Assembly (NCBI GenBank): GCA_020073085.1
Contig: JAIQFV010000009.1
Coordinates: 60,162 to 124,161, forward strand
DNA length: 64,000 bases
Direction of reading: 5' to 3'
Source of the DNA: Terriglobia bacterium
GTDB taxonomy: Bacteria > Acidobacteriota > Terriglobia > JAIQFV01
Shown in pieces: positions 5,161 to 35,699 of the stretch (position 1 is the first letter of the stretch; every line of letters begins with the position of its first letter). The position numbers and the translations under genes were made by a program. The notes under the pieces are model-generated. The model searched no databases. It saw only the letters and a list, made by a program, of their open reading frames with translations, and was not told where the DNA came from.

Positions 5161-5964
5161 ATGAGATGCAACGGTAAGAATGCATGCAGATTCCGATTCC
5201 ATCTTCTCCTGCTGATCGCAGCCTTTTCGGTCTCTTGTGGACTCTTTTCGCAGGATAGCGGGCCAAAGCGAGATGAGTGGCAACACCCGCAAGTGGTGAT
5301 GGATGCGCTGCACATTGATCCCGGGAAAATTGTCGCCGACGTCGGGGCCGGAGAAGGGTATTTCACGTTTCATCTGGCAGAGCGCGTCGGGCCCCGGGGC
5401 AAGGTCTATGCGGAGGATATTAGGAACGATGACGTGGAGGAGATCCGTCGGCTGGCTGAGGAAAAGCACCTCACCCAGATTGAAGCCCTGCACGGTGAAC
5501 CGGGCGATCCCAAATTACCCGAAAACTCGTTGGACGTTGTCCTTGTTATGAACTCCTACCACGAATTTCGATCCTACGATGCCATGCTGCAAGCCATCTT
5601 CAAGGCGCTGAAGCCGGACGGACTGCTCGCAATCATCGACTCCCCCACCCCTCCAGGTAGTTCCCGCTCCGACTATTACCCCCGACACCGTATTCCCGAG
5701 GAATTGGTCCGAGAAGACGTCGCCCACGCCGGGTTTCAATTTCTCCGCAAGGAGCCGGGCTTCACAAATCCGGCGAACAAAAAGGATTTCTATTTCTTGA
5801 TTTTCGAGAAACCCAAGCAACGTGCGGGAATTGCGGATTTCGAAATTCGGATTGCGGAGACTCAGGCACTTCCAATGCTTCTATTCCAGAATCCGAAATC
5901 CGCAATCCACAATGGTGAATGTAGTCACGACTTCAGTCGTTACTCCAGGGTTAGTAACGACTGA
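5161..5964 (+). CDS. Class I SAM-dependent methyltransferase with an N-terminal signal peptide
   Basis: It has the VADVGAGEGYFTFHLAERVGPRGKVYAEDI SAM-binding motif I followed by LKPDGLLAII. The hydrophobic N-terminus is likely a signal peptide. The 3' end runs into the repeat R1 and the hairpin region, so the true C-terminus is uncertain. Confidence 0.65.
   Translation: MRCNGKNACRFRFHLLLLIAAFSVSCGLFSQDSGPKRDEWQHPQVVMDALHIDPGKIVADVGAGEGYFTFHLAERVGPRGKVYAEDIRNDDVEEIRRLAEEKHLTQIEALHGEPGDPKLPENSLDVVLVMNSYHEFRSYDAMLQAIFKALKPDGLLAIIDSPTPPGSSRSDYYPRHRIPEELVREDVAHAGFQFLRKEPGFTNPANKKDFYFLIFEKPKQRAGIADFEIRIAETQALPMLLFQNPKSAIHNGECSHDFSRYSRVSND
5827..5912. repeat. Heptad-armed palindromic element, R class (GGATTGC/GGATTTC arms)
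   Basis: The left arm is attgcggatttcgaaattcggattgcgg and the right arm is ccgaaatccgcaatccacaat. The same arm sequence recurs at 12013-12112. Confidence 0.6.
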
Positions 5965-5980
5965 AGTCGTTACTACGGGA
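5925..5980. terminator. Near-perfect 24-bp stem-loop between convergent genes; candidate bidirectional terminator
   Basis: The sequence gtagtcacgacttcagtcgttact..agtaacgactgaagtcgttactac forms the stem. It lies between the + methyltransferase and the - qor gene. It has no strong U-tract. Confidence 0.4.
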
Positions 5981-8521: not shown

Positions 8522-8528
8522 AGATGCG

Positions 8529-8627
8529 GTTGTCAGTTCTCAGTTGCCAGTGAAAGGCAAATTGCTATCAGCTCTTTACTGACAACTGGGAACCGGTCAC
8601 TGGCAACTGCTTTCGGCAACTGAGAAC
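8529..8627. repeat. Heptad-armed palindromic element, Q class (CAGTTGC/CAGTTCT arms)
   Basis: The arms are gttgtcagttctcagttgccag ... ctggcaactg..caactgagaac. It occupies the intergenic gap immediately upstream of the ATPase start. Confidence 0.6.
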
Positions 8628-8646
8628 TTCTTCCTGAGGAGAATAC

Positions 8647-9351: not shown

Positions 9352-9361
9352 ATTGCAGAAT

Positions 9362-9540
9362 TCAGTTCTCAGTTCTCAGAATTAAATTCTCAGTTGCCAG
9401 TAAGAACCTTTAGCCCGGAAGAATGACCCTGACAGATGCAAACAGAGAAGATGTTTTAAAGTGCATCCTTCGTTTCAAGACATAGAGTCGGCCGACAGCT
9501 AACAAGGGTTTACTGGCAACTGAGAACTGACAACTGACTG
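9362..9540. repeat. Heptad-armed palindromic element, Q class
   Basis: The arms are cagttctcagttctcag..ctcagttgccag ... ctggcaactgagaactgacaactg. Confidence 0.6.
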
Positions 9541-9565
9541 CAGACCACTTCTCGAGGCAAGCCCG

Positions 9566-12013
9566 ATGGATTCAATCCTGGCCGACATCCGGTACAGCCT
9601 GCGTCTGTTGTTCAAACACCCCGGCTTCACGGCCGTCGCCATTGCCACGCTGGCGCTGGGCATCGGAATCAACACCAGCATCTTCACTGTGTTCAACGCC
9701 CTTGCATTGCGCCCGCTTCCCGCGAAGGATCCCGGTAGTGTAGTGAGAATCTACGAGTCATTCGAGGATGGACCCCGATATGGATCCGCCTCCTACCCGG
9801 ACTTCATGGATTTCCGCGAACAAAACAATGTTCTCTCAGGGCTGGTTGCTTACACAGGAGCGGCGCTGCGGCTGGGCGAGAGCAGTGATCCCAACACCCC
9901 CACCGAATCGTTTCAGGGCACACTCGTCTCGGGAAATTTCTTTTCCGTCCTTGGAGTTGACGCGGTTGTTGGTCGAACTTTCATTCCGGAAGAGGATAAG
10001 ACACCCGGTTCGCATCCCGTGACGGTTTTGAGCTATGGTTTATGGCAAAGGAGGTTCGGTTCAGATCCCGGGGTGGTGGGAAAAACGCTGATTCTGAATT
10101 TCCATCCGTACACCGTGGTCGGGGTAGCTCCCAAGTGGTTCACCGGCTTGGAACCGACGGCCACGGATCTATGGATACCCCTGATGATGGAGGCTGAGGC
10201 GGTGCCCGGCGGCAACATCCTCAATAATCGCAATACCCATCGGCTCAAACTGGTGGGCCGGTTGAAACCCGGGGTGAGCCTGAAGCAGGCTGAAGCCCAA
10301 ATTTCAACCCTTGCCGCCCAACTCGATCGAACCGATGGCCAGCCTGTTGCCAAGACCAGAAAAGTCAGCGCGACGATCACCCCGAGCTCATTTCTGGATC
10401 CTACTGACCAAGCGAATGTTATTCCGGTCGCCATCCTTATGATGACTGCCGTCGGACTGGTCCTCCTCATCGCCTGTGCCAATCTCGCCAATCTGTTACT
10501 TTCGCGGGCCGCCTCACGGCAAAAAGAGATTGGAATCCGGCTGTCCTTGGGGGCCACCCGGGGCCGGCTGATCCGACAACTTTTGACCGAGAGCACCCTG
10601 CTTTCTCTGGGCGGGGGAATCACCGGACTTCTCCTTACTTTCTGGATTACGGACCTGCTCCTCAGGTTCGTCCATCCTCCGGGGGAGCTACCGCTCGCCA
10701 TCAATGTGAGCCCCGATGTCAATGTCTTCGTATACGCCCTGTTAATCTCCCTTGCGGCCGGAGTTGCGTTTGGCCTGCTCCCGTCCATGCAATCCACGAA
10801 GCTGAACCTCACATCGGCCTTAAAGGATGAAGGCACCCCCTTCGGACAACGGATCAGCCGCTCTCGACTGCGAAGTCTACTGGTGGGAGCACAGGTCGCG
10901 GTCTCCCTGGTCTTGTTGATCGGTGCCGGCTTGCTGGTGCGAGCGCTTCACAATGCCCAAACGACCGACCCGGGATTTGCCATGAAGGATGTCTTCGTTC
11001 TGTCCCCCGATCTGCGACTGCATGGCTACACCCCGGTCCGTGCTGCCGAATTTGACCGGGAACTTGTGGACAAGCTCCAATCCCTGCCGGGAGTCGAGTC
11101 CGTGGGGATGGCCTGGGTCATCCCCCTGGGCTCATCATTCTCCGATACCAATGTGGAGATCGAAGGCCACGAGACTCCTCCCGGGAAAAAATCGCCCATG
11201 GCCAATGTCAATTTTGTTTCCGGAAAATATTTTGATGCACTGGGCATTTCGATGGTTCATGGCCGAACTTTCACCGAACAGGAGATGGCGAAGGATTCGA
11301 AGGTTGCCCTTGTCAATGAATCGTTTGCACGACGCTTTTGGCCGGGAGAAGATCCCATTGGAAAACGGTTCAATTACGGCATTGAAATTGTTGGGGTCGT
11401 GAAGGACACCCGGAGCGTTTATCTCTGGTCATCGAGCGAGCCCATCGCGTATCGAACGGTCGAGCCGGATTTCCAGCCGGACATGAAATTCTTCGTTCGA
11501 ACTGACGGCAACTCAAAATACCTCTCGACGACGTTACCGGGGATTGTCGGAAGCATCGACGGCAGCGTACAGACTAATGTCAAAACGCTGGAAGATAATC
11601 TTCAGGGATGGCTGTGGCCCTCCCGCATGGGAGCGATGCTCTCCGCTGCACTCGGCCTGCTGGCCCTCTTGCTGGCCTCGGTGGGCATTTACGGCGTGAC
11701 CGCTTACGCGGTCAGCCAGCGGACCCACGAGATTGGCATTCGCCTGGCGCTGGGTGCGGAGCGGCGCGCTGTGCTTCACCTGGTTTTGAGGCAGGGAATG
11801 CGCCCGGTCATCGCAGGGATTGCCGCCGGCCTGGTGATTTCCATTGCGGCGACGAACCTGCTGGCAAAGTTCCTCTATGGGTTGAGCGCCGTTGATGTGG
11901 TGACGTTTGCCCTCGTGTCGGCGATTCTCGCGGCCGTGGCCGCGCTGGCGAATTACCTCCCTGCGCGTCGTGCGGCAAGAGTCAATCCGATGGTGGCGTT
12001 GCATTATGAGTAG
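9566..12013 (+). CDS. ABC transporter permease, duplicated FtsX (ADOP family)
   Basis: 815 aa. The N-terminus reads ILADIRYSLRLLFKHPGFT, with two FtsX blocks. The C-terminus ends PARRAARVNPMVALHYE. Confidence 0.85.
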   Translation: MDSILADIRYSLRLLFKHPGFTAVAIATLALGIGINTSIFTVFNALALRPLPAKDPGSVVRIYESFEDGPRYGSASYPDFMDFREQNNVLSGLVAYTGAALRLGESSDPNTPTESFQGTLVSGNFFSVLGVDAVVGRTFIPEEDKTPGSHPVTVLSYGLWQRRFGSDPGVVGKTLILNFHPYTVVGVAPKWFTGLEPTATDLWIPLMMEAEAVPGGNILNNRNTHRLKLVGRLKPGVSLKQAEAQISTLAAQLDRTDGQPVAKTRKVSATITPSSFLDPTDQANVIPVAILMMTAVGLVLLIACANLANLLLSRAASRQKEIGIRLSLGATRGRLIRQLLTESTLLSLGGGITGLLLTFWITDLLLRFVHPPGELPLAINVSPDVNVFVYALLISLAAGVAFGLLPSMQSTKLNLTSALKDEGTPFGQRISRSRLRSLLVGAQVAVSLVLLIGAGLLVRALHNAQTTDPGFAMKDVFVLSPDLRLHGYTPVRAAEFDRELVDKLQSLPGVESVGMAWVIPLGSSFSDTNVEIEGHETPPGKKSPMANVNFVSGKYFDALGISMVHGRTFTEQEMAKDSKVALVNESFARRFWPGEDPIGKRFNYGIEIVGVVKDTRSVYLWSSSEPIAYRTVEPDFQPDMKFFVRTDGNSKYLSTTLPGIVGSIDGSVQTNVKTLEDNLQGWLWPSRMGAMLSAALGLLALLLASVGIYGVTAYAVSQRTHEIGIRLALGAERRAVLHLVLRQGMRPVIAGIAAGLVISIAATNLLAKFLYGLSAVDVVTFALVSAILAAVAALANYLPARRAARVNPMVALHYE

Positions 12014-12112
12014 ATTGCGGATTTCGGATTGCGGATTTCGGATTACTCAACCCCAGCCGAGGGAATCTATCGCCCATCATTGCGGCATCCGAAATCCGCA
12101 ATCCACAATCTG
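12013..12112. repeat. Heptad-armed palindromic element, R class (GGATTGC arms)
   Basis: The arms are gattgcggatttcggattgcggatttcggatt ... ccgaaatccgcaatccacaatc. A paralog of the 5827-5912 element. Confidence 0.6.
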
Positions 12113-12226
12113 AAATTGGATTGGAACGTGGAGGGCATGAGAGATGCCCCTTCCACTCTTGATCACAGTGCCAAAACCCGGAGGCAGGCAAGAAACCTGC
12201 GCTCCAAACCTGACAAGGAGAATGTA

Positions 12227-12859: not shown

Positions 12860-12896
12860 ATTACGAAGGCTGGGTTCGTGCTGAAACCTTGAATGA

Positions 12897-13033
12897 GGTG
12901 TCAGGTGCCGGGTGTCAGGTGTCAGAGTTCAAAGACATCACAGAATCTCGATGCTGCTTTTCTGATTACTGATTCGCTCGGCGGTTGGCAAAGACTATTG
13001 CATTAATCTGCCTGACACCCGACACCTGACACC
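12897..13033. repeat. Heptad-armed palindromic element, G class (GGTGTCA/GGTGCCG arms)
   Basis: The arms are ggtgtcaggtgccgggtgtcaggtgtcag ... cctgacacccgacacctgacacc. The right arm ends about 20 nt before the ADOP start codon. Confidence 0.65.
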
Positions 13034-13053
13034 TTTTTGACATGGATTGAAAA

Positions 13054-15606
13054 ATGGAAACCCTGTTTCAGGATCTTCGCTTCAGTCTTCGGATTCTGCT
13101 GAAGAATCCCGGCTTCACCCTGGTGGCGGTGCTGACCCTGGCCCTTGGCATCGGGGCCAACACCGCCATTTTCAGTGTTGTCAATGCGGTGCTGCTCCGG
13201 ACTCTCCCCGTCCCCCGTCCCCAGGAGTTGGTTGTTCTTGGAAACCCGGATGCCCATGGGATGAGTAATGGGAGCAGTTCGGGCGACCGGGACATTTTCT
13301 CCTATCACGAATTCGAACAGCTTCGCGATCAGAACCGGGTCTTCTCGAGCATCTTTGCTGCAGCGAGCTCCGTGAACTCCATGGACGGCTACTTCGACGA
13401 GACCGGGACGAGCGAACCTGCCGAGCCTGTCAAGGCCAGCCTTGTCAGTGGCGCTTTTTTCTCTGTGCTGGGTGCCAAGCCCATTCTCGGCCGGACCTTT
13501 ACACAGGAAGTCGACAGGGTCCCGGGAGTGAACCCGGTGGCAGTCATCAGCTATGATTTTTGGAGACGGCGGTATAGCCGGGATCCTTCCGTACTGGGAC
13601 GCACGGTCCGACTTCGTCAAACCACTTTTGAGATCATCGGGGTCACAGGTCCCGGATTTTTTGGTGAAACGGTCGGTGAATCGCCGGATTTGTGGGTGCC
13701 CTTGTCGATGCAAATGGCCGTGATCCCTGGAAAAAATCTCCTGGTCGATCCAAACAGCATCATGGAGAGAACCATCTGGATACAAATCATGGGGCGGCTA
13801 AGACCCGGGGTGAGTTTGGAACAAGCCAAGGCGAGCATCAACGTGACGTTTCAGCAGATGCTTCAAACGGATGCCAGTCCGAGCCTGACGGCAGACCAGC
13901 ACAAGGAGTGGATGGATCAACGAATTGCCCCGACGAGCGCCGCGAAAGGCGCATCGACGCTGCGGGGACGCTTTACCGATCCCCTCCGGATTTTGATGGG
14001 ATTGGTCGGACTCGTGCTTCTGATTGCCTGTGCCAATGTAGCCAACCTCCTGCTCTCGCGCGCGACCATGCGTCAGAAGGAAATTGCTATGCGGCTTGCA
14101 TTGGGTGCCCGGCCCTCCCGCCTGGTGCGACAGCTCCTGACCGAGAGTCTCCTGCTCGCGTTGGTGGGCGGAGGCGTCGGCCTTGTTCTCGCGCAATGGG
14201 CAAACAGTTTGCTGGTGCGCCTGGCGTCCGGCGGGCCGGACCTGATCTCGGTTGATCTTCATCCCGATGCTCGCATCCTGGGATTCACGCTTGCCCTCTC
14301 CATCCTCACCGGGGTCATGTTCGGATTGATCCCCTCGCTTCACTCGGCTCGGTTCGATTTGAACTCCATCCTCAAAGGCAGCGGCCGGGGTGCCACCGCT
14401 GACCGCGGCCGCAACCCCATCTCCAGAATGCCCGTGGGCAAGATCCTGGTCGTGGCGCAAGTGACCATATCTCTGCTGCTGCTGGTGGTGGCGGGACTTT
14501 TCGTGCGGAGTTTTCAAAAACTCGTGAACGTCGACCTCGGTTATAAACCTGACCGGTTCTTGTTGTTCCGAATCAACCCGCTTCAAAGCGGTTACCAAGG
14601 CGCCGCCCTGCTTCAGTTTCACCGGACCCTGCTGGAAAAAATCGCAGCAATTCCCGGCGTGCAGGGGGTGACCCTTTCGGAAAATGGTTTGTTCAGCCAC
14701 ACCGAGTCCGCCGACCCCATCTGGGTGGAGGGCTACACGCCGAAGACAGGCCCCGACAAGCATGCGCGATTCGATCAGGTGGGTCCCCGCTATTTTTCGA
14801 CGGTGGGCATCCCTGTGGTAGTGGGTCGTGATGTTGATCCGCACGATGGCGGAAATGGTCCGCGGGTCGGCTGGATCAATCAGACCATGGCCCGATTCTA
14901 TTTTCCAAATACGAATCCGCTGGGAAAACATGTCCGTGACGAGTATCCCGACAACCCCGGGGAATTTGAAATCGTGGGGGTCGTCGCCGATGCGAAGTAC
15001 AACAGCCTTCGGGAAAAGACGCCGCGACGGTTCTATGTCCCCTTTTTCCATCCGATCACCGAGGTGGCCGCCGCTAACTTCGAGATTCGCACCCGGGCAG
15101 AACCGGCGGCAGTCGCGGCTTCGCTCCGCGATCTGGTAAAGTCGTTGGATCGATCCCTCCCCACGCTGCATGTCCATACAATGACGGAACTGGTCGACCA
15201 ATCGTTGGCGCGGGAGCGCCTGATCACCAGTCTATCCGGATTATTTGGGACCCTGGCGGTGTTGCTCGCTTCCATTGGGCTTTACGCCGTCATGGCGTTT
15301 GCGGTGGCTCGAAGAACGAATGAGATCGGCATCCGCATGGCCCTGGGAGCGCAGCGCCGAAACGTCCTGGGGATTGTCATGCGGGAAACCTTGGTGCTGG
15401 TCCTGCTCGGGATCGGCATCGGACTGCCCGTGGTCTTTGCCACCACACGCCTGCTTTCACAACTGCTCTTTGGGCTGACGCCCGTCGACCCCGCCACAAT
15501 CTTGATGGCCACGGTGGGGATGATTTCAGTCGCTGCCCTGGCAGCCTATCTCCCGGCCCATCGGGCAAGCCGGGTGGATCCCATGGTGGCATTGCGATAT
15601 GAGTAG
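13054..15606 (+). CDS. ABC transporter permease, duplicated FtsX (ADOP family)
   Basis: 850 aa. Begins METLFQDLRFSLRILLKNPGFT. The C-terminus ends PAHRASRVDPMVALRYE. Confidence 0.9.
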   Translation: METLFQDLRFSLRILLKNPGFTLVAVLTLALGIGANTAIFSVVNAVLLRTLPVPRPQELVVLGNPDAHGMSNGSSSGDRDIFSYHEFEQLRDQNRVFSSIFAAASSVNSMDGYFDETGTSEPAEPVKASLVSGAFFSVLGAKPILGRTFTQEVDRVPGVNPVAVISYDFWRRRYSRDPSVLGRTVRLRQTTFEIIGVTGPGFFGETVGESPDLWVPLSMQMAVIPGKNLLVDPNSIMERTIWIQIMGRLRPGVSLEQAKASINVTFQQMLQTDASPSLTADQHKEWMDQRIAPTSAAKGASTLRGRFTDPLRILMGLVGLVLLIACANVANLLLSRATMRQKEIAMRLALGARPSRLVRQLLTESLLLALVGGGVGLVLAQWANSLLVRLASGGPDLISVDLHPDARILGFTLALSILTGVMFGLIPSLHSARFDLNSILKGSGRGATADRGRNPISRMPVGKILVVAQVTISLLLLVVAGLFVRSFQKLVNVDLGYKPDRFLLFRINPLQSGYQGAALLQFHRTLLEKIAAIPGVQGVTLSENGLFSHTESADPIWVEGYTPKTGPDKHARFDQVGPRYFSTVGIPVVVGRDVDPHDGGNGPRVGWINQTMARFYFPNTNPLGKHVRDEYPDNPGEFEIVGVVADAKYNSLREKTPRRFYVPFFHPITEVAAANFEIRTRAEPAAVAASLRDLVKSLDRSLPTLHVHTMTELVDQSLARERLITSLSGLFGTLAVLLASIGLYAVMAFAVARRTNEIGIRMALGAQRRNVLGIVMRETLVLVLLGIGIGLPVVFATTRLLSQLLFGLTPVDPATILMATVGMISVAALAAYLPAHRASRVDPMVALRYE

Positions 15607-15762
15607 GTGTCAGGGATCGGGTGTTAGGTGTCAGTTTGCCGGACTGGGGAATCCAAGAACACTTGCGACCGAAGCCAGAGGACAGAAGTCAGAAGAATCA
15701 AGAACCAATCGCTTACGTCGCTGACTCTCCACCCTGACACCTGACACCCGACACCTGGCACC
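15604..15762. repeat. Heptad-armed palindromic element, G class
   Basis: The arms are ggtgtcagggatcgggtgttaggtgtcag ... ccctgacacctgacacccgacacctggcacc. The core contains cagaagt/cagaaga heptads. Confidence 0.65.
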
Positions 15763-15775
15763 TTAAGGAACATCG

Positions 15776-18202
15776 ATGGAAACATTATTTCAAGATCTCC
15801 GGCACGGCCTTCGTTTACTGACGAAATCGCCCGGGTTCACCGTGGTCGCGGTGCTGACGCTCGCCCTGGGAATCGGCGCCAATACGGCCATTTTTAGCCT
15901 TGTCAATGCGTTCCTCCTGAAGCCCCTCGCATTCCCCCAGGAAAGTCAACTGATGGTCCTCACCGGCCAAACCCGCCAGGAGAAGCGAACCGGAATCTCC
16001 TATCCGGATTTTGAGGATTGGCGGAGGCAAAGCGGGTCTTTCTCCGCCCTTTCCACATGGATGACACAGAGTGTGAATCTGACCGGGGTGGAAGAGCCGC
16101 AGCGTGTGCGCGGCGGATTTGTCTCCGCCAATTTCTTCGATGTGTTGGGCATTAAGCCCGCGCAGGGCCGCGCCTTCCTCCCGGGAGAAGATCAGCCGGA
16201 GGGGGCGCGCGTCGTAGTGGTGAATTACGGCCTGTGGCAAACGCGCTTTGGGGCCGATCCGGGGTTTGTCGGAAAACAACTCACTCTCAATGGCGCAGTG
16301 TTTACGGTGGTGGGAATCCTCCCGCCATCCTTCGAGTTTCCGTTGGACAAGGATCGGGATGAAATCTGGATGCCCGTGTCCAGCTATCCCGACTTTTCTC
16401 GAGATCGCAGTGTCTCTAATCTCGTGGCGATCGGCCGCCTGAACCCAGCCACCACCCTTAGCCGGGCACAGGCGGAGATGAATACCATCGCGCAACGACT
16501 TGCGCAGGAGTACCCGGATATAGACGGGCAGCGCGGTGTGGTGGTCGCGCCCTTGCACGAAGTGGCTGTGGAAGAGGTGCGAACCTCCCTCCTGGTGCTG
16601 TTCGCCGCCGTGGGCTTTGTCCTGCTGATCGCGTGCGCCAATGTGTCAAACCTGATGCTTGCCCGAGCGTCCGGGAGACGGAAGGAACTAGCTCTGCGTT
16701 CCGCCCTGGGCGCCAGCCGTGGTCGATTGATCCTGCAGATGATCACGGAAAGCGCCCTGTTGTGGCTGGCAGGAGGGGCACTCGGCCTCCTGGTGGGCGA
16801 TTGGGCTCTACAGGCTATTCAGGCGTCGGCGCCCTTGGCTTTTCCCCCCGGCCTTGTCCCTCGCCTGGACGGAGTGGTCTTCGGGTTTACATTGTTGGTG
16901 GCGGTCGTGACCGGATTCCTTTCGGCGCTTGCTCCCGCGCTTCAGTTCTCCCGGCCGGATTTGAACAACACCCTCAAAGAGGGTGGGAGAATCTCAGGCG
17001 AAGGATCAGGTCAAGGATGGTCGCAGAAGCTGCTCCTGGTATCGCAGGTCGCACTTTCGTTGGTGCTTCTGGCCGGCGCAGGCCTGATGCTGAAGACGGT
17101 CCTCCGGCTCTCGGACATCAGTCCGGGGTTTCGCCCGGAGGATCTTCTGACCCTGGAGTACCGTCTACCTGACACGAAATACCCCGAGCCCGCACAACAA
17201 TGGAATTTCCACCGTGAGGTGGTCGACCGCGTGAGCGGGCTTTCGGGTGTGCGGTCGGCCTCGGTCTCCCTGGGAATCCCATTCAGTGGAAACATCGGCT
17301 CGGATCCGATGGTTTTGCTGGATCGCCCGGAACCTCCTCCAGGGGAAGAACCGATCGCGGAAACCAACCTGGTCGATACCCATTACTTCAAAACCATGGA
17401 AATCCCGCTCCTCGAAGGACGGTTGTTCTCCGACCAGGATCGGGCCGGAACACCTCGCGTCGCGATCATCAACCAGAACATGGCGCGGCGCTATTGGCCG
17501 GGACGTGATCCGTTGGGAAGCCAAATCCGGGTGCGCGATGAGTTGGCGCTCGTGGGGAGTGGACCGTCGACGATCATCGGCGTCGCCGGCAACGTGAAGC
17601 AGGAGGACCTGGAGGACCCGGCAAGCGCGCAAATCTATTTTGCCTTCCAACAGAACCCGTTCAAGTTCGCCACCCTGACCGTTCGGACACAGGGCGATCC
17701 CATGCTGTTTGCCAACACAGTTCGTCGGGCGGTGTGGTCAGTGGACAAGGACCAGCCCATGTGGAAGGTACGTTCCCTCGAATCGATGCTTGACCGCTCT
17801 CTTCGCGCGCGGCGGTACTTGATGTTCTTGCTCGGTATTTACGCAACCCTGGCGCTTGGGTTGGCAACGCTCGGGATTTACGGAGTACTTTCTTACGCGG
17901 TGAACCAGCGCTTCCAGGAAATCGGCGTGCGGATGGCTTTGGGGGCACAAACCGGAGATGTATTTCGTCTGGTCATTCGAGAGGGGATGCAATTGGTGCT
18001 TGCCGGCCTGGGGATCGGACTCGCCGGCGCCTTTGCTCTGACGCGATTGATGGCAGGATTGTTGTTCGGGGTGACGCCCACCGACCCATCAACGATGGCC
18101 GCCGTGTCAGCACTTCTGACGGGAGTGGCATTCCTGGGATGCTATTTGCCGGCGCGCCGGGCAACCCGCGTCGATCCGATGGCCGCACTGAGATGCGAGT
18201 AG
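15776..18202 (+). CDS. ABC transporter permease, duplicated FtsX (ADOP family)
   Basis: 808 aa. Begins METLFQDLRHGLRLLTKSPGFT. The C-terminus ends PARRATRVDPMAALRCE. Confidence 0.9.
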   Translation: METLFQDLRHGLRLLTKSPGFTVVAVLTLALGIGANTAIFSLVNAFLLKPLAFPQESQLMVLTGQTRQEKRTGISYPDFEDWRRQSGSFSALSTWMTQSVNLTGVEEPQRVRGGFVSANFFDVLGIKPAQGRAFLPGEDQPEGARVVVVNYGLWQTRFGADPGFVGKQLTLNGAVFTVVGILPPSFEFPLDKDRDEIWMPVSSYPDFSRDRSVSNLVAIGRLNPATTLSRAQAEMNTIAQRLAQEYPDIDGQRGVVVAPLHEVAVEEVRTSLLVLFAAVGFVLLIACANVSNLMLARASGRRKELALRSALGASRGRLILQMITESALLWLAGGALGLLVGDWALQAIQASAPLAFPPGLVPRLDGVVFGFTLLVAVVTGFLSALAPALQFSRPDLNNTLKEGGRISGEGSGQGWSQKLLLVSQVALSLVLLAGAGLMLKTVLRLSDISPGFRPEDLLTLEYRLPDTKYPEPAQQWNFHREVVDRVSGLSGVRSASVSLGIPFSGNIGSDPMVLLDRPEPPPGEEPIAETNLVDTHYFKTMEIPLLEGRLFSDQDRAGTPRVAIINQNMARRYWPGRDPLGSQIRVRDELALVGSGPSTIIGVAGNVKQEDLEDPASAQIYFAFQQNPFKFATLTVRTQGDPMLFANTVRRAVWSVDKDQPMWKVRSLESMLDRSLRARRYLMFLLGIYATLALGLATLGIYGVLSYAVNQRFQEIGVRMALGAQTGDVFRLVIREGMQLVLAGLGIGLAGAFALTRLMAGLLFGVTPTDPSTMAAVSALLTGVAFLGCYLPARRATRVDPMAALRCE

Positions 18203-18346
18203 GTGTCAGGTGCCGGGTGTCAGGTGTCGGGTGCCAGAAAACCGAATTACTCTGTTCTTTTACTTGTCTGCCGTTACCTCAAAGGACAGGCATTCCAAGA
18301 ACTGTGGGACTCTTCGCCCTGGCACCTGACACCCGACACCTGATAC
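18201..18346. repeat. Heptad-armed palindromic element, G class
   Basis: The arms are aggtgtcaggtgccgggtgtcaggtgtcgggtgccag ... ggcacctgacacccgacacctgatacc. Confidence 0.65.
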
Positions 18347-18365
18347 CTTATCGAAAAAAGGAAAA

Positions 18366-19985: not shown

Positions 19986-19987
19986 GG

Positions 19988-20178
19988 AGCAGCTGTCAGT
20001 GGTCAGCAACCGGCCGTAACCGATCAGCTATCGGCTGTCAGGTATGAGTAGAGCAAAACATGTCAAAAGACTTAATCACTTCGTTGATCTGATCATCTCA
20101 ATCTGATGCTATCTGAGAGTCAAATGCTGACAGCTTATTACTCGCAACCGACCACTGACCACTGGCCACTGACAACTT
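19988..20178. repeat. Heptad-armed palindromic element, C class (CAGCTAT/CAGCGAT arms), carrying a micro-ORF
   Basis: The arms are gcagctgtcagtggtcagc..gatcagctatcggctgtcagg ... gctgacagc..accactgaccactggccactgacaac. Confidence 0.6.
20044..20106 (+). CDS. Candidate micro-ORF, family A (MSRAKHVKRLNHFVDLIISI, 20 aa)
   Basis: Its N-terminal 9 aa and most of its nucleotides are shared with the 26-aa copies at 26109, 22815(-) and 25530(-). It appears to be a shortened or degenerate member. Confidence 0.3.
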   Translation: MSRAKHVKRLNHFVDLIISI

Positions 20179-20188
20179 TCTGGAGACG

Positions 20189-22694: not shown

Positions 22695-22696
<2 letters not shown>

Positions 22697-22902
22697 GTGT
22701 CGGGTGTCGGCAAGCAGCCGTCAGCATTCAGCTATCAGCCATCAGGTGAAATTGGATTCATATGATTGGACTCAACGAGCTGTTCTCGTCTTTTGACATC
22801 TTTCACTCTAATCATAGCTGCCTGCTGATAGCTGATCGCTAACGGCTAATCACTGACAACTGAGAACTGACAACTGCTTGCTGACACCTGGCACCCGACA
22901 CC
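22695..22902. repeat. Composite nested palindrome with G-class outer arms, C-class inner arms and one Q-class right arm, carrying a micro-ORF
   Basis: From the outside in: gtgtcgggtgtcgg then cagccgtcagcattcagctatcagccatcagg, then the core, then ctgatagctgatcgctaacggctaatcactg, then gacaactgagaactgacaactg, and finally ctgacacctggcacccgacacc. Confidence 0.6.
22735..22815 (-). CDS. Candidate micro-ORF, family A (MIRVKDVKRREQLVESNHMNPISPDG, 26 aa)
   Basis: 81 nt, exactly the same length as the copies at 26109-26189 and 25450-25530. The differences between copies are mostly synonymous or conservative (I/V, R/K, ccg/cca/cct Pro). Confidence 0.4.
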   Translation of the reverse strand: MIRVKDVKRREQLVESNHMNPISPDG

Positions 22903-22916
22903 TTCTGGAGGTTAAG

Positions 22917-25352
22917 ATGGAAACCATATTCCAGGATCTTCGCTACGGCTTCCGGATGCTGCTGAAGAATCCCGGCTTCACCGCTGTGGGCATTTTGACG
23001 CTGGCGCTTGGGATTGGCGCCAACACGGCAATCTTCAGTGTCGCGGATGCATTCCTGCTGAAGCCGCTTTCGATCCCCAACGAAAATCGCCTGGTGGTCG
23101 CTCTTGAAGTGGGGCCGAATCAGAGAGGCGATGATACCTCCAGTGTCTCTCCTGCCAACTTTGAGGACTGGAAGAGGCAGGCCAAAGCCTACGAAGCCAT
23201 GGCCGCTTATGATTGGGCGAATGTCAATCTGACCGGTCAGGGGGAGCCCGAGAAGGTCCAGGGATTCGAAGTCACCTCAAATTTCTTCGGGGTCGTGGGT
23301 ATCCAGCCCACTCTGGGCCGGGTTTTCCTTCCCGAGGAGGAAAACCGCGGACATGAACAGGTGGTGATTCTCAGTCATGGCCTGTGGCAACGCCGGTATG
23401 CTTCAGACGCCAACATTGTTGGTAAGAACGTGACGGTTGACGGAAGCACCTTTGAGGTCGTCGGAGTCATGCCCGCGGGGTTCAACTTCCCCACCACCGC
23501 GGAGTTGTGGATGCCGCTCGCACTGGACTCAGCGGCCCGCAGCGTTCGAAACTCACACTACCTGTTTGCCCTAGGTCTGCTCAAACCCGGGATGTCCACC
23601 TCCTCCGCACGAGCCGAATTGAAGACGCTTGCAGCGCAGTTGGCCCAGGCTTACCCGACCACCAACAAGGGTTGGTCAGTTCGTGTCACGTCCATGCGGG
23701 ATTTTGTGACCCAGGACTTAACGCGCCAGTACACCCTGATGTCCGTGGTGGCAGTCGCCTTTGTGCTCCTGATCGCCTGTGCCAACGTCGCCAATCTCCA
23801 GTTCGCCCGGGCCACGAGCCGCCAGAGAGAGATGGCCGTGCGGGTGTCCCTGGGCGCAGGCCGCTGGCGGATCATGCGGCAGCTCTTGACAGAAAGCATT
23901 GCGGTGTCCTTGCTGGGAGCGGCACTCAGCTTGCTTTGGGCCCAATGGGCCATCGAACTTATCCTGGCACACATGCCTCCGGAGACCGCCAAATTTATCC
24001 CCGCCTGGAATCATATCCGCCTGGATTACCGGGCCTTCTTATACACTTTGACCCTGGCCCTGCTGACCGGGATCCTCTCCGGGTTGATCCCTGCTTTTCA
24101 GAGCTCAAAGCCGGACCTGAACGAAGCCCTAAAGGAAGGCGGGCGCAGTGCATCGGCCGGCCAATCGAAACATCGTCTGCGAAGTTTCCTGGTCATGGCT
24201 GAAGTGGCGTTGGCCCTGATTCTGTTGGTGGGATCCGGATTGATGGTGAAGAGCTTTAGAGCCCTGCTGAATCTGAACCAGGGACTTGACCCGAACAATG
24301 TCCTCACCCTCCGCGTCAATCTCCCCCCGGGCAAGTACAAGACGCCGCCGCAAAGGGCGGCCTTCTATGACCAGGTGCTGCAGAATCTGAAAATGATCCC
24401 CGGATTCGAAGCTGCTGCCACTGCAACCAATATCCCCTATGGGGATTATGGGAGCAACGCGCTCATCAGCGTGGAGGGCAAGCCCTCAGTGAATTCCTCG
24501 GACCTCCGCTCGGCCACGAACCAGGTCATTAGCCCCGACTATTTTCGAATGATGCACATTCCGCTGCGAGCAGGGCGCGAGCTCACCGGCCAGGACGGGA
24601 AAGATTCTCCACCCGTGGCGGTGGTGAGCGAGTTGCTGGCGCGCCGGAACTGGCCCAATCAAGACCCGATCGGCAAACGAGTGAAGTTGGGGCTCGAAAA
24701 CAGCAGCTACCCCTGGATGACCGTGGTGGGCGTGGTCGGCGACGTCAAATATGACTGGAGCGAGCGGGATCCGAAACCCGCCCTCTATCATCCATTTCAA
24801 CAAGCTCCCTCGCTGAACTCTTACGTGGCGATCCGCTCCCAGGGTGATCCCAGGCAGTTCATCTCGGCGGTGCGAGACGCGATTGCCCGGGTCGATCCCC
24901 AACAACCCCTCTCCGACATTAAAACGTTGGACAAGGTGATCTCAGATTCCACGGTCGGCATTGCCTATGTTGCCGTCATCATGAGCGTCCTGGCAGTCAT
25001 CGCGTTGATTCTTTCGACCGTGGGCGTCTTCGGGGTGGTGTCTTATCAGGTGACGGAGCGAATCCATGAAATCGGAATCCGCATGGCCCTCGGCGCCAAC
25101 CCGCGCGATGTGCTGGGGATGGTTGTTGCCCGCGGAGCCTGGTTAACATTCGTCGGCTTGGGAGTTGGACTCGTTCTCTCGATCGGCCTGGCGCGCCTGT
25201 TGGCCAGCCTGATCTTTGGAATCGAGGCGATGGATTGGCTCACCTTCGGAAGTGTTTCTGTGACACTCGCCCTGGCCGCCCTGCTGGCCAGTTATCTCCC
25301 CGCTCGGCGCGCCACCCGGGTGGATCCGGTGGTCGCGCTGCGGCATGAATGA
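22917..25352 (+). CDS. ABC transporter permease, duplicated FtsX (ADOP family)
   Basis: Starts at the METIFQDLRYGFRMLLKNPGFT methionine. The upstream in-frame Met at 22878 lies inside the repeat. The C-terminus ends PARRATRVDPVVALRHE. Confidence 0.9.
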   Translation: METIFQDLRYGFRMLLKNPGFTAVGILTLALGIGANTAIFSVADAFLLKPLSIPNENRLVVALEVGPNQRGDDTSSVSPANFEDWKRQAKAYEAMAAYDWANVNLTGQGEPEKVQGFEVTSNFFGVVGIQPTLGRVFLPEEENRGHEQVVILSHGLWQRRYASDANIVGKNVTVDGSTFEVVGVMPAGFNFPTTAELWMPLALDSAARSVRNSHYLFALGLLKPGMSTSSARAELKTLAAQLAQAYPTTNKGWSVRVTSMRDFVTQDLTRQYTLMSVVAVAFVLLIACANVANLQFARATSRQREMAVRVSLGAGRWRIMRQLLTESIAVSLLGAALSLLWAQWAIELILAHMPPETAKFIPAWNHIRLDYRAFLYTLTLALLTGILSGLIPAFQSSKPDLNEALKEGGRSASAGQSKHRLRSFLVMAEVALALILLVGSGLMVKSFRALLNLNQGLDPNNVLTLRVNLPPGKYKTPPQRAAFYDQVLQNLKMIPGFEAAATATNIPYGDYGSNALISVEGKPSVNSSDLRSATNQVISPDYFRMMHIPLRAGRELTGQDGKDSPPVAVVSELLARRNWPNQDPIGKRVKLGLENSSYPWMTVVGVVGDVKYDWSERDPKPALYHPFQQAPSLNSYVAIRSQGDPRQFISAVRDAIARVDPQQPLSDIKTLDKVISDSTVGIAYVAVIMSVLAVIALILSTVGVFGVVSYQVTERIHEIGIRMALGANPRDVLGMVVARGAWLTFVGLGVGLVLSIGLARLLASLIFGIEAMDWLTFGSVSVTLALAALLASYLPARRATRVDPVVALRHE

Positions 25353-25593
25353 CAGTTGCCAGCAAGCAGTTGCCAGTTGTCAGTTCTCAGTTCTCAGTTG
25401 ACAATCGCAAGAGGTTAGTGCTCAGCTATCAGTTTTCTGCAATCAGCGATCAGCCTTCAGCTGAAATAGGATTCAATGGACCGGGAGTAATGAAACATTC
25501 GAATCTCTTGATATGTTTGACCTCAATCATAGCTGACTGCTGAGAGCTGATCGCTGACGGCTGGTTGCTGGCAACTGACAACTGGCAACTATC
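25351..25593. repeat. Composite nested palindrome with Q-class outer arms and C-class inner arms, carrying a micro-ORF
   Basis: The outer arms are cagttgccagcaagcagttgccagttgtcagttctcagttctcagttg ... ggttgctggcaactgacaactggcaact. The inner arms are cagctatcag..cagcgatcagccttcagctg ... agctgactgctgagagctgatcgctgacgg. Confidence 0.6.
25450..25530 (-). CDS. Candidate micro-ORF, family A (MIEVKHIKRFECFITPGPLNPISAEG, 26 aa)
   Basis: 81 nt. The peptide is conserved with the copies at 26109 and 22815(-) through synonymous and conservative codon changes. Confidence 0.4.
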   Translation of the reverse strand: MIEVKHIKRFECFITPGPLNPISAEG

Positions 25594-25614: not shown

Positions 25615-26019
25615 ATGCCATCCTCTCGCGAGATCGGATATGCTCTGTTGCGAGTGACCTTGGGTGTCCTGTTTGCGACCTACGGGATCGGAAAATTCCG
25701 GATGGGGGTCGGCAACTTTGCCGGCATGATGGAAAAAGAGTTCACCGGGAAACTCCCGATGGTCATGGTCTCGCCGTTCGGTTATCTAGTACCGTTCGCT
25801 GAACTGCTGGTCGGTGTCCTGCTGACCTTCGGGCTTTTCACCCTTCTCGCGCTCACCCTGGCCGGGCTGCTCATGATTGCACTGACCTTCGGGATGGCCC
25901 TCTTGGGGCAGGCTCCCGTTGTCGCGCAAAACCTCACTTACGTCCTGGCGATTTTTGTTCTTTTGTGGACCGCGGAAAATAATGGATATTCATTGGATCG
26001 ACTGCGGCAGGGTAGGTAA
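25615..26019 (+). CDS. DoxX-family membrane protein
   Basis: 134 aa. Begins YALLRVTLGVLFATYGIGKF. Four predicted TM helices. Confidence 0.7.
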   Translation: MPSSREIGYALLRVTLGVLFATYGIGKFRMGVGNFAGMMEKEFTGKLPMVMVSPFGYLVPFAELLVGVLLTFGLFTLLALTLAGLLMIALTFGMALLGQAPVVAQNLTYVLAIFVLLWTAENNGYSLDRLRQGR

Positions 26020-26023
26020 CACT

Positions 26024-26244
26024 TGTCAGTTGTCAGTTGCCAGAAATAAGTTGCCAGGTCTCACTTGCCATCAAGGAGCTGTCAGCGATCGGCCATCAGC
26101 AGTCAGCTATGATTAGAGTGAGACACATCAAACAATATGAGGACTTCATTGATTCCAGTCACTTGAATCCGATTCCAGCTTATGGCTGATAGCTGAATGC
26201 TGACAGCTCTTTACTGGCAACTGACAACTGAGAACTGACAACTG
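26024..26244. repeat. Composite nested palindrome with Q-class outer arms and C-class inner arms, carrying a micro-ORF
   Basis: The outer arms are tgtcagttgtcagttgccag..gttgccag ... ctggcaactgacaactgagaactgacaactg. The inner arms are gctgtcagcgatcggccatcagcagtcagct ... ggctgatagctgaatgctgacagc. Confidence 0.6.
26109..26189 (+). CDS. Candidate micro-ORF, family A (MIRVRHIKQYEDFIDSSHLNPIPAYG, 26 aa)
   Basis: The start codon is the last heptad of the left C-arm (cagctATG). The stop TGA lies inside the right arm (ggcTGAtagctg). Confidence 0.4.
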   Translation: MIRVRHIKQYEDFIDSSHLNPIPAYG

Positions 26245-26269
26245 TATTTCCAACTTCACCCCCGGGGGA

Positions 26270-26938
26270 ATGATGATCAAACTCGTTGATTTGGAGAAGT
26301 TCTACGCTCATGGTGTTTCAAAGACCTTTGTGCTGCGGCGCGTGAGTTTTGATGTCCAGGAGGGAGAGTTCGTATCGATTATGGGCCCGTCGGGTGCAGG
26401 CAAATCCACGGTGCTCCATATCCTGGGGATGTACGACAGCGACTGGAGCGGCGAGTTCTATTTCCTCGACCAGCCGATTCACAAACTCGACAGGAAGAAA
26501 CGGGCGGAATTCAACAAGAAGTATGTCGGCTTCGTTTTTCAAAGCTACCACCTGCTGGACAACCTGACGGTCTATGAAAACCTCGAGATCCCCCTCTCGT
26601 ACCGGGACGTCAAGAAGAGTCAGCGAGAGAGCATTGTGTGCGATGTCCTGGATCGATTTCAAATTGTGGGCAAGAAGGATCTCTTTCCAAACCAGCTCTC
26701 CGGGGGACAGCAGCAGTTGGTGGCCGTCGCCCGAGCCGTGATCGCCAACCCCAAAGTCATTCTCGCCGACGAACCCACGGGGAACCTGCACTCCAGCCAG
26801 GGCGAGGAGATCATGGAGCTCTTCAAGAAGCTGAACGCCGAGGGGGCCACCATCATACAGGTCACTCATTCCGACAAGAATGCTTCTTACGGCAGCCGCA
26901 TCATCAAGCTCCGCGACGGATGGGTCGTGAATGATTAG
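26270..26938 (+). CDS. ABC transporter ATP-binding protein, MacB/LolD type
   Basis: Contains a Walker A (GPSGAGKSTVLHILG), the signature LSGGQQQLVAVARAV and a Walker B ([11 protein letters not shown]). Confidence 0.9.
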   Translation: MMIKLVDLEKFYAHGVSKTFVLRRVSFDVQEGEFVSIMGPSGAGKSTVLHILGMYDSDWSGEFYFLDQPIHKLDRKKRAEFNKKYVGFVFQSYHLLDNLTVYENLEIPLSYRDVKKSQRESIVCDVLDRFQIVGKKDLFPNQLSGGQQQLVAVARAVIANPKVILADEPTGNLHSSQGEEIMELFKKLNAEGATIIQVTHSDKNASYGSRIIKLRDGWVVND

Positions 26939-26949: not shown

Positions 26950-27385
26950 CGGGTGCCACAGGCATCATGCTTGGGTGCCGCAGGCATCGTGCTCTTTACG
27001 ATGCCTGCGCCAGGTTCCCGATAAGAACACTGGCTGTTCCCGCAACGTCCCTGAAACGACAGATGGGGTGCCGCAGGTATCGTGTTCTTTACGATGCCTG
27101 CGCCAGGTTCCCGATGAGATCACGGGCTGTTCCCGCAACGTCCCTGAAACGACAGATGGGTGCCGCAAGTATCGTGCTCTTTACGATGCCTGCGCCAGGT
27201 TCCCGATGAGATCACGGGCCGTTCCCGCAACGTCCCTGAAACGACAGATGGGTGCCGCAGGCATCATGCTCTTTACGATGCCTGCGCCAGGTTCCCGATG
27301 AGATCACTGGCTGTTCCCGCAACGTCCCTGAAACGACAGATGGGGTGCCGCGGGCATCGTGCTCTTTACGATGCCTGCGCTGGAA
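26950..27385. repeat. Tandem direct repeat with a 92-bp unit, about 4.6 copies, each holding an internal 11-bp hairpin
   Basis: The unit is ggtgccgcaggcatcgtgctctttacgatgcctgcgccaggttcccgatgagatcacgggctgttcccgcaacgtccctgaaacgacagatgg. Copies differ by only a few SNPs. Each has the stem gcaggcatcgt / acgatgcctgc. Confidence 0.85.
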
Positions 27386-34924: not shown

Positions 34925-34928
34925 GAAG

Positions 34929-35651: not shown

Positions 35652-35699
35652 TTTTTCGCTTCTTGCACCCAGACACCCGACACCTGGCACCCGACACCT
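35505..35699. repeat. Heptad-armed palindromic element, G class
   Basis: The arms are caggtgtcgcgtgtcagg ... cccagacacccgacacctggcacccgacacc. The core contains cagaaga/cagaagt heptads. Confidence 0.6.

Follow-up and report, generated by a model that had tools for sequence, protein, structure and literature searches.

Inverted heptad arrays between ADOP genes of a Terriglobia contig: candidate relatives of the hairpin elements that carry PF05635 genes

Intervening sequences (IVSs) with an S23p/PF05635 open reading frame (ORF) are known from the 23S rRNA genes of Leptospira, Coxiella, Xanthomonas, Brucella and others, at helix 25 or helix 45. STRR sequences, a kind of heptanucleotide repeat, are described as direct arrays, and the bAvd relatives of the PF05635 proteins form a pentameric four-helix-bundle ring that binds nucleic acid. 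Heptanucleotide arrays and rRNA IVSs have both been known for decades, with neither a mechanism nor a link between the two. Here we describe eight intergenic palindromes, the G class, in 64 kb of a metagenomic Terriglobia contig (JAIQFV010000009.1; 'the window' denotes this whole stretch). Their arms are inverted arrays of a 7-nt unit, one of them encloses a PF05635 gene, and the balance of evidence leans modestly towards their being, for the rest, ORF-less copies of an IVS-like hairpin family with turnover at the DNA level.

Several described repeats resemble parts of this architecture. The Coxiella IVS has three to four copies of GACAGAT on the 5' side of its stem and is cut by RNase III at the first repeat (PMC4990558), and the PF05635 relative XCC0516 is a pentamer, as cited in the same paper. 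Direct TAACTGA repeats occur just upstream of start codons in Beggiatoaceae, Cyanobacteria and Bacteroidetes (MacGregor 2015, PMC4679880); those of BOGUAY are almost all one-sided, with one inverted set reported (PMC4679880). The 'class 3 global regulator sites' of Geobacter metallireducens consist of five tandem MTYCTGA units, paired on opposite strands (PMC2700814). The contiguous heptamer repeats of Nostoc 7120 are of unknown function, and the factor that binds them is still called unidentified (10.1101/2022.06.06.494920).

All eight G-class palindromes lie at, or a few nucleotides off, the positions given in a preliminary description of this DNA (Table 1). The pattern (RGGTGYC)x3, with at most one mismatch, has 30 matches in the window and none in 100 dinucleotide shuffles; '+' copies of the heptad are always on the left and '-' copies always on the right. 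The paired arms are 24 nt long and 96% complementary at 12896-12919/13011-13034, 36 nt and 83% at 18196-18231/18318-18353, 41 nt and 83% at 36559-36599/37176-37216, 41 nt and 93% at 40301-40341/40438-40478, and 28 nt and 96% at 56254-56281/56389-56416. All elements fold as long hairpins, with z-scores of -2.7 to -9.6 on the + strand and about equal values on the reverse strand. The reported 7-nt periodicity, the non-randomness and the interrupted helices of 25-40 bp between a stop codon and the next start codon are all borne out.

Other parts of the preliminary description needed adjustment. A start close to the upstream stop codon is seen at 15604, 18201, 22695 and 56252, where TAG or TAA overlaps the first heptad, and on the minus strand at 40291, where the arm lies 6 nt past the ADOP stop at 40520, but not at 12897 or 36559, which are separated from the stop by 36 and 11 nt. 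In six of the eight elements, 12-22 nt separate the right arm from the next start codon. Adjacency to an ADOP or DUF4097 gene, claimed for seven, holds for all eight if remnants are counted; at 35505-35699 the upstream neighbour is an ADOP N-terminal remnant (35178-35494), not an intact gene. The second heptad array said to occur often in the cores is present in half of the elements, as a CAGAAGT-type array. Finally, where four sequence classes had been counted, the G class is one of at least five.

The additional classes are CAGTTSY, with 25 three-unit matches in the window where none is expected, GGATTKC, CAGCNAT, CAGTGGY and CAGAAGT. Tandem Repeats Finder reports rows of period 7, and all units fit the form C-(A/G)-G followed by four class-specific bases. 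Jointly the classes build about 18 palindromes in the window, often in concentric layers, and 16 of the 18 are intergenic once spurious ORF overlaps are resolved. The core of the 12896-13034 element, about 90 nt long, is unique (z-scores of the element, -7.5/-9.7). A core family of about 100 nt has copies of one orientation at 22697 and 25353 and of the opposite one at 19986 and 26020, and two further core families are common to several elements. At 22695-22903 a CAGTTGT array is present on the right side only (22852-22876).

The 36559 element is the one that links these palindromes to a protein family. It had been read as a palindrome (36559-37213) with a 655-nt core, and this interior proves to hold a minus-strand gene for a four-helix-bundle protein. 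The protein matches PF05635 (23S_rRNA_IVP) with an E-value of 3.9e-34, TIGR02436 with 115.6 bits against a cut-off of 24, and the structures 2GSC (E 6.6e-30) and 2RLD of the PDB, and it is 100% identical to an NCBI protein named 'four helix bundle protein'. It is bAvd-like by its match to PF22296, and scores 37.3 bits against a cut-off of 80 with NF033474, the equivalog model for Avd of diversity-generating retroelements (DGRs). Comparison with the positional orthologue in a related genome gives a dN of 0.11 and a dS of 0.85, so that the protein is under purifying selection. The element folds with its arms paired, and its G arms are common to the seven ORF-less copies. Both in its gene and in its stem-plus-ORF layout, this complete form, present once in the window, matches the 23S rRNA IVS. 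No promoter or terminator was found in a scan of 36500-37300, and a search of the whole window with Rfam at gathering thresholds returned no family and no rRNA.

To place this element among its relatives, we scanned metagenome contigs for relatives of the window protein and obtained at least 80 loci at 60-73% identity; the frequencies from this and the other collections are those of samples, not of a census. For nearly all relatives with enough flanking sequence, the best inverted repeat across the gene is made of (A/C/G/T)GGTG(T/C)(C/T) heptads. A stricter test required at least three periodic xGGxxxx heptads on each side, in inverted arrangement, and used control windows from the same loci. 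Among the matches listed, 51 of 59 metagenomic homologues had inverted arrays on both sides, versus 0 of 168 controls. As a rule the array begins at the upstream gene's stop codon, and at many loci it ends at the next ATG. The variants TAGGTGY, GAGGGNC, CAGGGGT, TAGGTGG and CAGGATT group by protein subclade. As for the genes that border the PF05635 gene in 51 loci, both neighbours are co-directional with it in 23, both are antisense in 8, and the remaining 20 are mixed.

Searching genomes with the G pattern alone retrieved at least 120 loci, and a hidden Markov model of the protein finds 2 PF05635 ORFs among the matches listed, one in Gemmatimonadaceae (L103) and one in Bacteroidales (L086), both bracketed by or abutting G arrays. 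With 2 ORFs among 120 listed loci, ORF-less arrays are the large majority. The exact three-heptad G pattern is also carried by 118 contig stretches of IMG/VR, some with several copies on both strands (L237, L300), and no close PF05635 relative was found in these 118 stretches. The palindromes are not, then, confined to the window, as would have spoken against the preliminary description if they had been: they occur in two related genomes, at hundreds of metagenome and genome loci across phyla, and on viral-collection contigs. Some arrays are exceptionally long, with 22 TAGGTGC units upstream of a PF05635 gene in one metagenome (L146) and about 36 CTCAGSA units in a Blastocatellia sequence (L114, 2205-2461); heptad arrays can therefore grow far beyond the usual 3-8 units.

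More distant homologues were sought on plasmids by tblastn, which gave 33 records, mostly cyanobacterial, of which 21 were fetched (26-53% identity). Most of the arms in Table 1 are again heptads, and the octads of Gemmatirosa kalamazoonensis mean that the family does not keep strictly to a 7-nt period. Plasmid CRISPR-cas operons contain inserted PF05635 genes with heptad arms in Anabaena sp. 90 (L207), Pseudanabaena (L219) and Picosynechococcus (L221), twice between cas6 and cas4 and once between cmr2 and cmr3, and elsewhere an antisense PF05635 gene splits the alpha and beta genes of ribonucleotide reductase (L208). In N. punctiforme, two paralogues of the gene differ in their arms (CAGGAGT versus TAGGGTG), as do paralogues in Nostoc ATCC 53789; because two paralogues in one strain carry different heptads, the unit follows the element and not the host. 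One match, in Azospirillum lipoferum (L217), lies within a 23S rRNA gene (Rfam LSU, 926 bits) and is a genuine 23S rRNA IVS. Its stem reads CAGAGGA CGGATGA CAGAGGA CGGAGGA, paired with the complement (z -9.8), a unit of the form C(A/G)GA(G/T)GA. The family is thus large and phylum-spanning, each arm being an inverted array of one 7-nt unit of C-(A/G)-G plus four class-specific bases, and the clade-specific association of PF05635 genes with heptad hairpins extends over Acidobacteriota, Gemmatimonadota, Cyanobacteriota, Bacteroidota and Pseudomonadota.

This association bears directly on whether the arrays could be neutral long simple sequence repeats (SSRs), in which slippage expands the heptads and chance juxtaposition or template switching yields the palindromes, with no dedicated protein. 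Heptanucleotides are reported to be the commonest unit of prokaryotic long SSRs, and slippage has been proposed for them (Mrazek 2007, as summarised in PMC4679880); heptad copy number does differ between orthologous elements, arrays can be one-sided or as long as that of L146, and the two arms do not covary. Against this stand the recurrence of the same few heptads across phyla, the fixed topology, with a partner of the same class downstream at 25 loci versus 2 with the opposite arrangement, the strong association with a single gene family, a heptad type that follows the protein clade within one host, and placement abutting stop codons. We therefore consider neutral SSRs very unlikely as an explanation.

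For an evolutionary perspective on the window, we compared it with two related metagenome-assembled genomes, JBGQBO01 and JBGPTE01. Both are fully syntenic with about 8.6-27 kb of the window and one also with 30.4-45.3 kb, as established through the RR-SpoIIE gene; two loci of the relative genome (L009 and L058) are not syntenic. Between window and relatives the RR-SpoIIE protein is 88-89% identical and gene DNA about 70-87% identical. Across the three genomes the intergenic elements are less conserved than the flanking genes, with a much higher rate of turnover. The nine intergenic gaps of the syntenic ADOP-gene array at 8.6-27 kb are called g1 to g9 in window order. At g3, the gap of the 12896-13034 element, the G class of the window is replaced in both relatives by a 289-nt CAGTTGT/CAGC-class element, and JBGPTE01 has in addition an extra 824-aa ADOP gene followed by a TAGGTAA/TAGGTGA (TAGGTRA) palindrome (L344, 1727-4679). 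The outer G arms are retained in the relatives at g4, g5 and g7, around cores that are unrelated or come from another repeat family: at g4 (15604-15763) a CAGC-class element replaces the core, and at g5 (18201-18348) both relatives keep the G arms with a different core; g7 is the gap of the 22695-22903 element. At g6 (19988-20180) the three genomes have three structures, one of them a minimal G hairpin of 109 nt and another with eight G heptads and CAGTGGT units that are confined to the left side. The heptad class differs outright between genomes at g1 and g9 (26018-26246), a relative having a GGATTKC+CAGC-class element at g1 (9354-9545), and the GGATTKC class is retained in both relatives at g2 (12010-12116).

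Similar changes are seen outside the array. The CAGTTSY element at 34927-35146 has a G-class/CAGAAGT element at its orthologous site, and the core of the 40293-40514 element is inverted between window and relative. At 35.2-36.5 kb a single intact ADOP gene in the relative corresponds to an N-terminal ADOP remnant, a G palindrome and a DUF4097 gene in the window. The gene-bearing element at 36559-37216 is retained in the relative (L216) at 77.5% nucleotide identity. What these comparisons document is that, at fixed positions between cistrons, the elements are rapidly replaced or inverted at the DNA level and neighbouring ADOP and DUF4097 cassettes turn over by gain, loss or truncation. The earlier suggestion of recombination substrates that drive paralogue turnover is directly supported by the comparison: cores and classes are exchanged or inverted among three syntenic genomes, and the extra ADOP gene and the ADOP/DUF4097 swap fall exactly at palindromes.

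The preliminary description had also placed the palindromes in the 5' untranslated region of the downstream gene, as RNA helices in which compensatory changes might be found. Each left arm was set against the reverse-complemented right arm at the register of best fit, and identity at the two variable heptad positions was compared with a null in which heptad order was shuffled within an arm. No position-specific compensatory covariation was found: identity at variable positions is 0.746 over 63 elements versus 0.764 +/- 0.014 for the null, and the window elements alone give 0.775 versus 0.713 +/- 0.058, with no signal of covariation. The arms pair because both are built of one heptad family, not through upkeep of individual base pairs. 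On the sense strand of the gene, 44 mismatches would be G-U and 65 would be A-C. A strand-specific 5'-UTR element kept by selection on structure does not fit this lack of covariation and of strand asymmetry, or cores that lie both ways. A strand-specific RNA element in general is rejected on the equal folding of the two strands, the 44:65 ratio and the two orientations of the cores. Mimicry of Shine-Dalgarno and anti-Shine-Dalgarno sequences by AGGTG/CACCT arms was considered as well, and fails to extend to CAGTTSY, CAGCNAT and GGATTKC. The hairpins may still have roles in processing or stabilisation.

These results weigh on a broader alternative, that the palindromes are immobile, cis-acting RNA hairpins in polycistronic mRNA (stabilisers, RNase III sites or translational insulators for the ADOP array) and the PF05635 gene is incidental cargo. 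Such a role would account for the stereotyped placement between stop and start codons, for a hairpin in every gap of the ADOP array in all three genomes, and for outer G arms that are kept at g4, g5 and g7 while the loops vary, as if the stem alone mattered. It also finds support in the co-directional gene upstream of the PF05635 gene in 38 of 51 loci, and in the RNase III cut of the homologous Coxiella IVS stem (PMC4990558). We nevertheless regard it as unlikely, given that position-specific covariation is absent, that neither folding nor the G-U versus A-C count shows strand bias, and that the heptad sequence itself is conserved across phyla beyond the needs of pairing. Moreover, whole classes swap at single sites (g1, g3, g9), the cores come from dispersed repeat families and lie either way round, and a purely cis-acting role does not account for the tight, clade-specific association with PF05635.

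Multi-copy extragenic palindromes of several families, in both orientations and nested, are also what one would expect of non-autonomous elements of the REP/REPIN type or miniature inverted-repeat transposable elements (MITEs), mobilised by a transposase encoded elsewhere (RAYT/IS200-IS605 Y1 or DDE) with the four-helix-bundle gene as a passenger. ORF-less copies far outnumber ORF-bearing ones (7:1 in the window; 118:2 among the genome loci listed), and several left arms are preceded by 'GTAG' (15602, 18199, 22694), recalling the GTAG of REP sequences. This 'GTAG', however, occurs only where it is the last ADOP codon plus the stop codon (...E-stop). None of the 56 ORFs in the 64-kb window encodes a transposase, a RAYT (PF01797-type), an integrase or a reverse transcriptase, no target-site duplication can be defined, and the arms are tandem arrays of variable length, not fixed terminal inverted repeats. 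In the MITE comparison, the ORF-less copies resemble the gene-bearing element at the level of the arms only. Furthermore, it would be surprising for a passenger to be the one gene that clade-matched arms consistently enclose in different phyla. We give this explanation little credence.

Returning to an IVS-like hairpin family with mostly ORF-less members, we propose the following course of events. The elements lodge in the short gap between the stop of one gene and the start of the next, and their near-identical arms would provide scattered stretches of homology for recombination and gene conversion; this would explain core swaps with retained arms and the turnover of ADOP and DUF4097 genes. 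Read-through transcripts may form duplexes of 25-40 bp that RNase III could cleave, separating cistrons or releasing the loop; by analogy with rRNA IVSs, whose excision by RNase III has been shown for Coxiella only, we see about an even chance that RNase III cleaves these stems in transcripts. The pentameric four-helix-bundle protein could bind the heptad array as its cognate platform and might maintain or propagate its own element and the ORF-less copies in trans. Binding of the protein to its cognate heptads is proposed tentatively, because the heptad tracks the protein clade and not the host, and because the protein is homologous to the nucleic-acid-binding Avd.

In a further alternative, templated, telomerase-like or Avd-assisted reverse transcription would add arrays to DNA ends during break repair, the palindrome being a by-product of both broken ends receiving one and the same G-rich unit. 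The G-rich strand does run 5'->3' from the flank inward on both arms, as 3'-end extension of two broken ends would predict. The heptad order of one arm is independent of that of the other, the arms are unequal in number, and PF05635 is homologous to DGR Avd, a cofactor of reverse transcriptase. Any element with terminal inverted repeats has the same polarity by descent, though, and no reverse transcriptase is encoded in the window or beside the elements that were examined. The window protein also falls below the Avd equivalog cut-off. Extension of this kind is extremely unlikely.

A number of observations weigh against an IVS-like family of mobile or protein-maintained elements, beyond the sampled nature of the frequencies. 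We found neither a clean empty site nor a target-site duplication, nor any two dispersed copies that are nearly identical, and every orthologous gap examined holds some heptad element. With no empty site, target duplication or gene remnants, strict transposition is unproven. The TA flanks seen at some metagenome loci are part of the TAGG...CCTA palindrome, and no TA flank is present in the window. Some arrays are one-sided (g6 in L343), which suggests that accretion or slippage of arrays fits better than movement of whole palindromes and also contributes. The four-helix-bundle protein has no catalytic domain. No PF05635 remnant stood out from noise in the ORF-less cores at E <= 10, and descent of these copies by internal deletion is therefore without support. 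PF05635 genes in the sample accompany AGG-type heptads and CAGGAGT/CAGAAGT, and none was seen with CAGTTSY, CAGCNAT or GGATTKC; for those classes the model is an extrapolation. Finally, the co-variation of protein and heptad could be plain co-inheritance.

Table 1. Heptad elements and associated gene in the window, and PF05635 loci on plasmids
Source	Position	Strand	Feature	Remarks
Window	12896-13034		G-class palindrome, ORF-less	left arm AGGTGTC AGGTGCC GGGTGTC AGGTGTC; right arm, reverse complement x3
Window	15604-15763		G-class palindrome, CAGAAGT-type core array	first heptad overlaps stop of ADOP 13054-15606
Window	18201-18348		G-class palindrome	between ADOP 15776-18202 and RR-SpoIIE phosphatase gene
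Window	22695-22903		layered palindrome	outer G arms, inner CAGCNAT arms, conserved core of ~100 nt
Window	35505-35699		G-class palindrome, long CAGAAGT/CAGAGGC core array	after ADOP remnant 35178-35494, before DUF4097 (~35720)
Window	36559-37216	-	full-length G-class element	41-nt heptad arms around four-helix-bundle gene
Window	36714-37082/37094	-	four-helix-bundle gene	122 aa, MSVRSFRDL..., probable product
Window	40293-40514		G-class palindrome, duplicated right arm, CAGAAGY core	between stop of ADOP(-) 40520-42985 and start of HIT gene(-) 40254
Window	56252-56418		G-class palindrome, CAGAAAT core array	between ADOP C-terminal fragment and DUF4097 56441-57421; z -9.6
Window	5826-5916		GGATTKC-class palindrome	inside 3' end of annotated methyltransferase ORF 5161-5964
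Window	8526-8642		CAGTTSY-class palindrome	pattern search, folding
Window	9354-9545		CAGTTSY-class palindrome	pattern search, folding, synteny
Window	12010-12116		GGATTKC-class palindrome	inverted repeat, folding, synteny
Window	19988-20180		CAGTGGY outer and CAGC-class inner arms	conserved core in reverse orientation
Window	25350-25592		CAGTTSY outer arms, CAGC-class inner element	inverted repeat, pattern search, folding
Window	26018-26246		CAGTTSY outer arms, CAGC-class inner element	core inverted relative to 25350-25592
Window	34927-35146		CAGTTSY-class palindrome	inverted repeat, pattern search, synteny
Window	54244-54485		CAGTTSY-class palindrome	core related to that of 58948-59165
Window	58948-59165		CAGTTSY-class palindrome	32-nt arms, 91%
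Anabaena sp. 90 (L207)	between cas6 and cas4		arms CAGGTGA / CAGGGAA	
Nostoc edaphicum			arms TAGGGAG	
Calothrix brevissima; N. punctiforme pNPUN01			arms TAGGGTG	
Nostoc C052			arms CAGGGAA	
Geminocystis (L212)	between parA and parB		arms AAGGGAA	
Stanieria			arms GGCAGAR	both arms
Nostoc 7120, Nostoc HK-01			GGCAGAR, one arm only	transposase gene directly upstream of four-helix-bundle gene
N. punctiforme pNPUN02; Nostoc ATCC 53789 pNsp_a			arms CAGGAGT / CAGAAGT	
Riemerella			arms AAGGTTY	
Picosynechococcus (L221)	between cmr2 and cmr3		arms GGAGATA-type	
Gemmatirosa kalamazoonensis plasmid 1 (L211)			octad arms, period 8	GGCAGGAG x4 / CTCCTGCC x4

Several features of the window adjoin these elements or lie among them. 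ADOP pseudogenes adjoin G-class palindromes at 54492-56253, where one gene is broken into ORFs for its N-terminal (54492-55076) and C-terminal (55345-56253) parts, and at 35178-35494, a 320-nt N-terminal remnant with 82.5% identity to the relative's intact ADOP gene. The Pfam domain of the methyltransferase ORF at 5161-5964 covers amino acids 39-161, and the palindrome at 5826-5916 lies well beyond it; perhaps the annotated ORF is an artificial extension across the element, or perhaps the element codes for its C-terminus. A separate hairpin (24 nt, 96%) lies at 5921-5976 between convergent genes. At 26972-27380, just downstream of the ABC ATPase gene 26270-26938, a 92-nt unit is tandemly repeated in 4.4 copies with 94% matches, each unit with a hairpin (GCAGGCATCGTGCTCTTTACGATGCCTGC); the overlapping ORF 26975-27301 has no Pfam match. 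The divergent region upstream of the ECF-sigma operon holds nested inverted repeats of a non-heptad kind (30009-30246; arms of 30 nt at 90% and 48 nt at 81%). On the minus strand, 27525-28683 is a likely toxin-antitoxin pair, with a helix-turn-helix plus SocA/Panacea antitoxin (27895-28683) and a small upstream ORF without Pfam match, and is conserved in the relative (L343).

The region is present in six public contigs, which at 99.99-100% identity are uninformative on strain-level microevolution. Two independent assemblies (Logan contigs L005 and L006) begin exactly at window position 12898, in the first G heptad, and many PF05635 homologues are on contigs of only 0.6-1.5 kb. Heptad arms therefore break short-read assemblies, and metagenome assemblers should be warned of contig ends at such arms. 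Beyond this practical point, the elements are a candidate reason for the plasticity of acidobacterial arrays of ADOP and DUF4097 paralogues, and the finding links IVSs, STRR-type repeats and an orphan protein family in a protein-repeat hypothesis that can be tested directly. In its widest form, rRNA IVSs, STRR/heptamer repeats (together with TAACTGA and Geobacter arrays) and the acidobacterial palindromes would be one protein-guided selfish superfamily, a unification that we hold to be rather doubtful. The pentamer would read its own tandem heptad, with about one unit per subunit, and the protein would maintain, copy or recombine its own element and the far commoner ORF-less arrays, which would in turn reshuffle cassettes.

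The preliminary description could assign the palindromes to no named repeat family; named relatives do exist, in the form of rRNA IVSs, cyanobacterial heptanucleotide repeats and TAACTGA repeats. The unit GGTGYCR of the G class was not found as a published unit in the literature searched, nor was a link between PF05635/S23p and heptamer arrays outside rRNA, in a literature of which coverage was incomplete. The window protein is homologous to DGR Avd in fold and sequence (PF22296 and NF033474 matches), but scores 37 against 80 bits, with no reverse transcriptase or template/variable repeat (TR/VR) pair nearby. Similar to REP/REPIN sequences and MITEs, the elements are dispersed extragenic palindromes of several families that lie between co-directional genes, with ORF-less copies dominant. 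Unlike REP/REPIN sequences, their arms are heptad arrays of variable number instead of a fixed imperfect palindrome of 20-40 nt with a 5' GTAG, and they enclose, in a window without RAYT or transposase, a gene for a non-catalytic four-helix bundle.

The likeness to described heptanucleotide repeats is closer. The reverse complement of the Geobacter unit, CAGRAKT, matches the CAGAAGT class, and both systems have tandem heptads in strand-switching pairs; the Geobacter sites are annotated only as putative protein-binding sites, with no analysis of an element, an ORF or turnover (PMC2700814). The right arms of the CAGTTSY class read (S)AACTGA, one base off TAACTGA, and no identity to a named STRR or TAACTGA unit was found; like TAACTGA repeats, they end a few nucleotides before start codons, have 2-6 copies and are spread across phyla, whereas the window arrays are two-armed palindromes around other heptad layers. 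With STRR sequences, long heptanucleotide SSRs and the Nostoc 7120 heptamer repeats the elements share multi-class tandem heptamers in intergenic positions near start codons, and the arrays that flank PF05635 genes on Nostoc, Calothrix and Anabaena plasmids are of the STRR/heptamer kind. The host phylum of the window, Acidobacteriota, sets it apart from STRR, and the STRR literature searched yielded no inverted architecture with two arms and no protein gene linked to such repeats.

The closest comparison is with the rRNA IVS. Both have a terminal-inverted-repeat stem (41 nt at 83% in the window element) that encloses an ORF of the PF05635 family, and real IVS stems are themselves made of C(A/G)G-type heptads, as in Azospirillum and in the GACAGAT repeats of Coxiella (PMC4990558). 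The window elements differ in lying between protein-coding genes and not in helix 25 or 45 of a 23S rRNA, and in being mostly ORF-less, in either orientation to transcription, nested and multi-class; the window ORF is under purifying selection, where the Coxiella ORF is decaying (PMC4990558). Since their flanks are protein-coding and without rRNA, the elements are IVS-like, not IVSs in the strict sense. By their defining features they fall outside REP/RAYT systems, DGRs and strict IVSs, and they have both the tandem units of heptanucleotide repeats and the stem-plus-PF05635-ORF layout of the rRNA elements.

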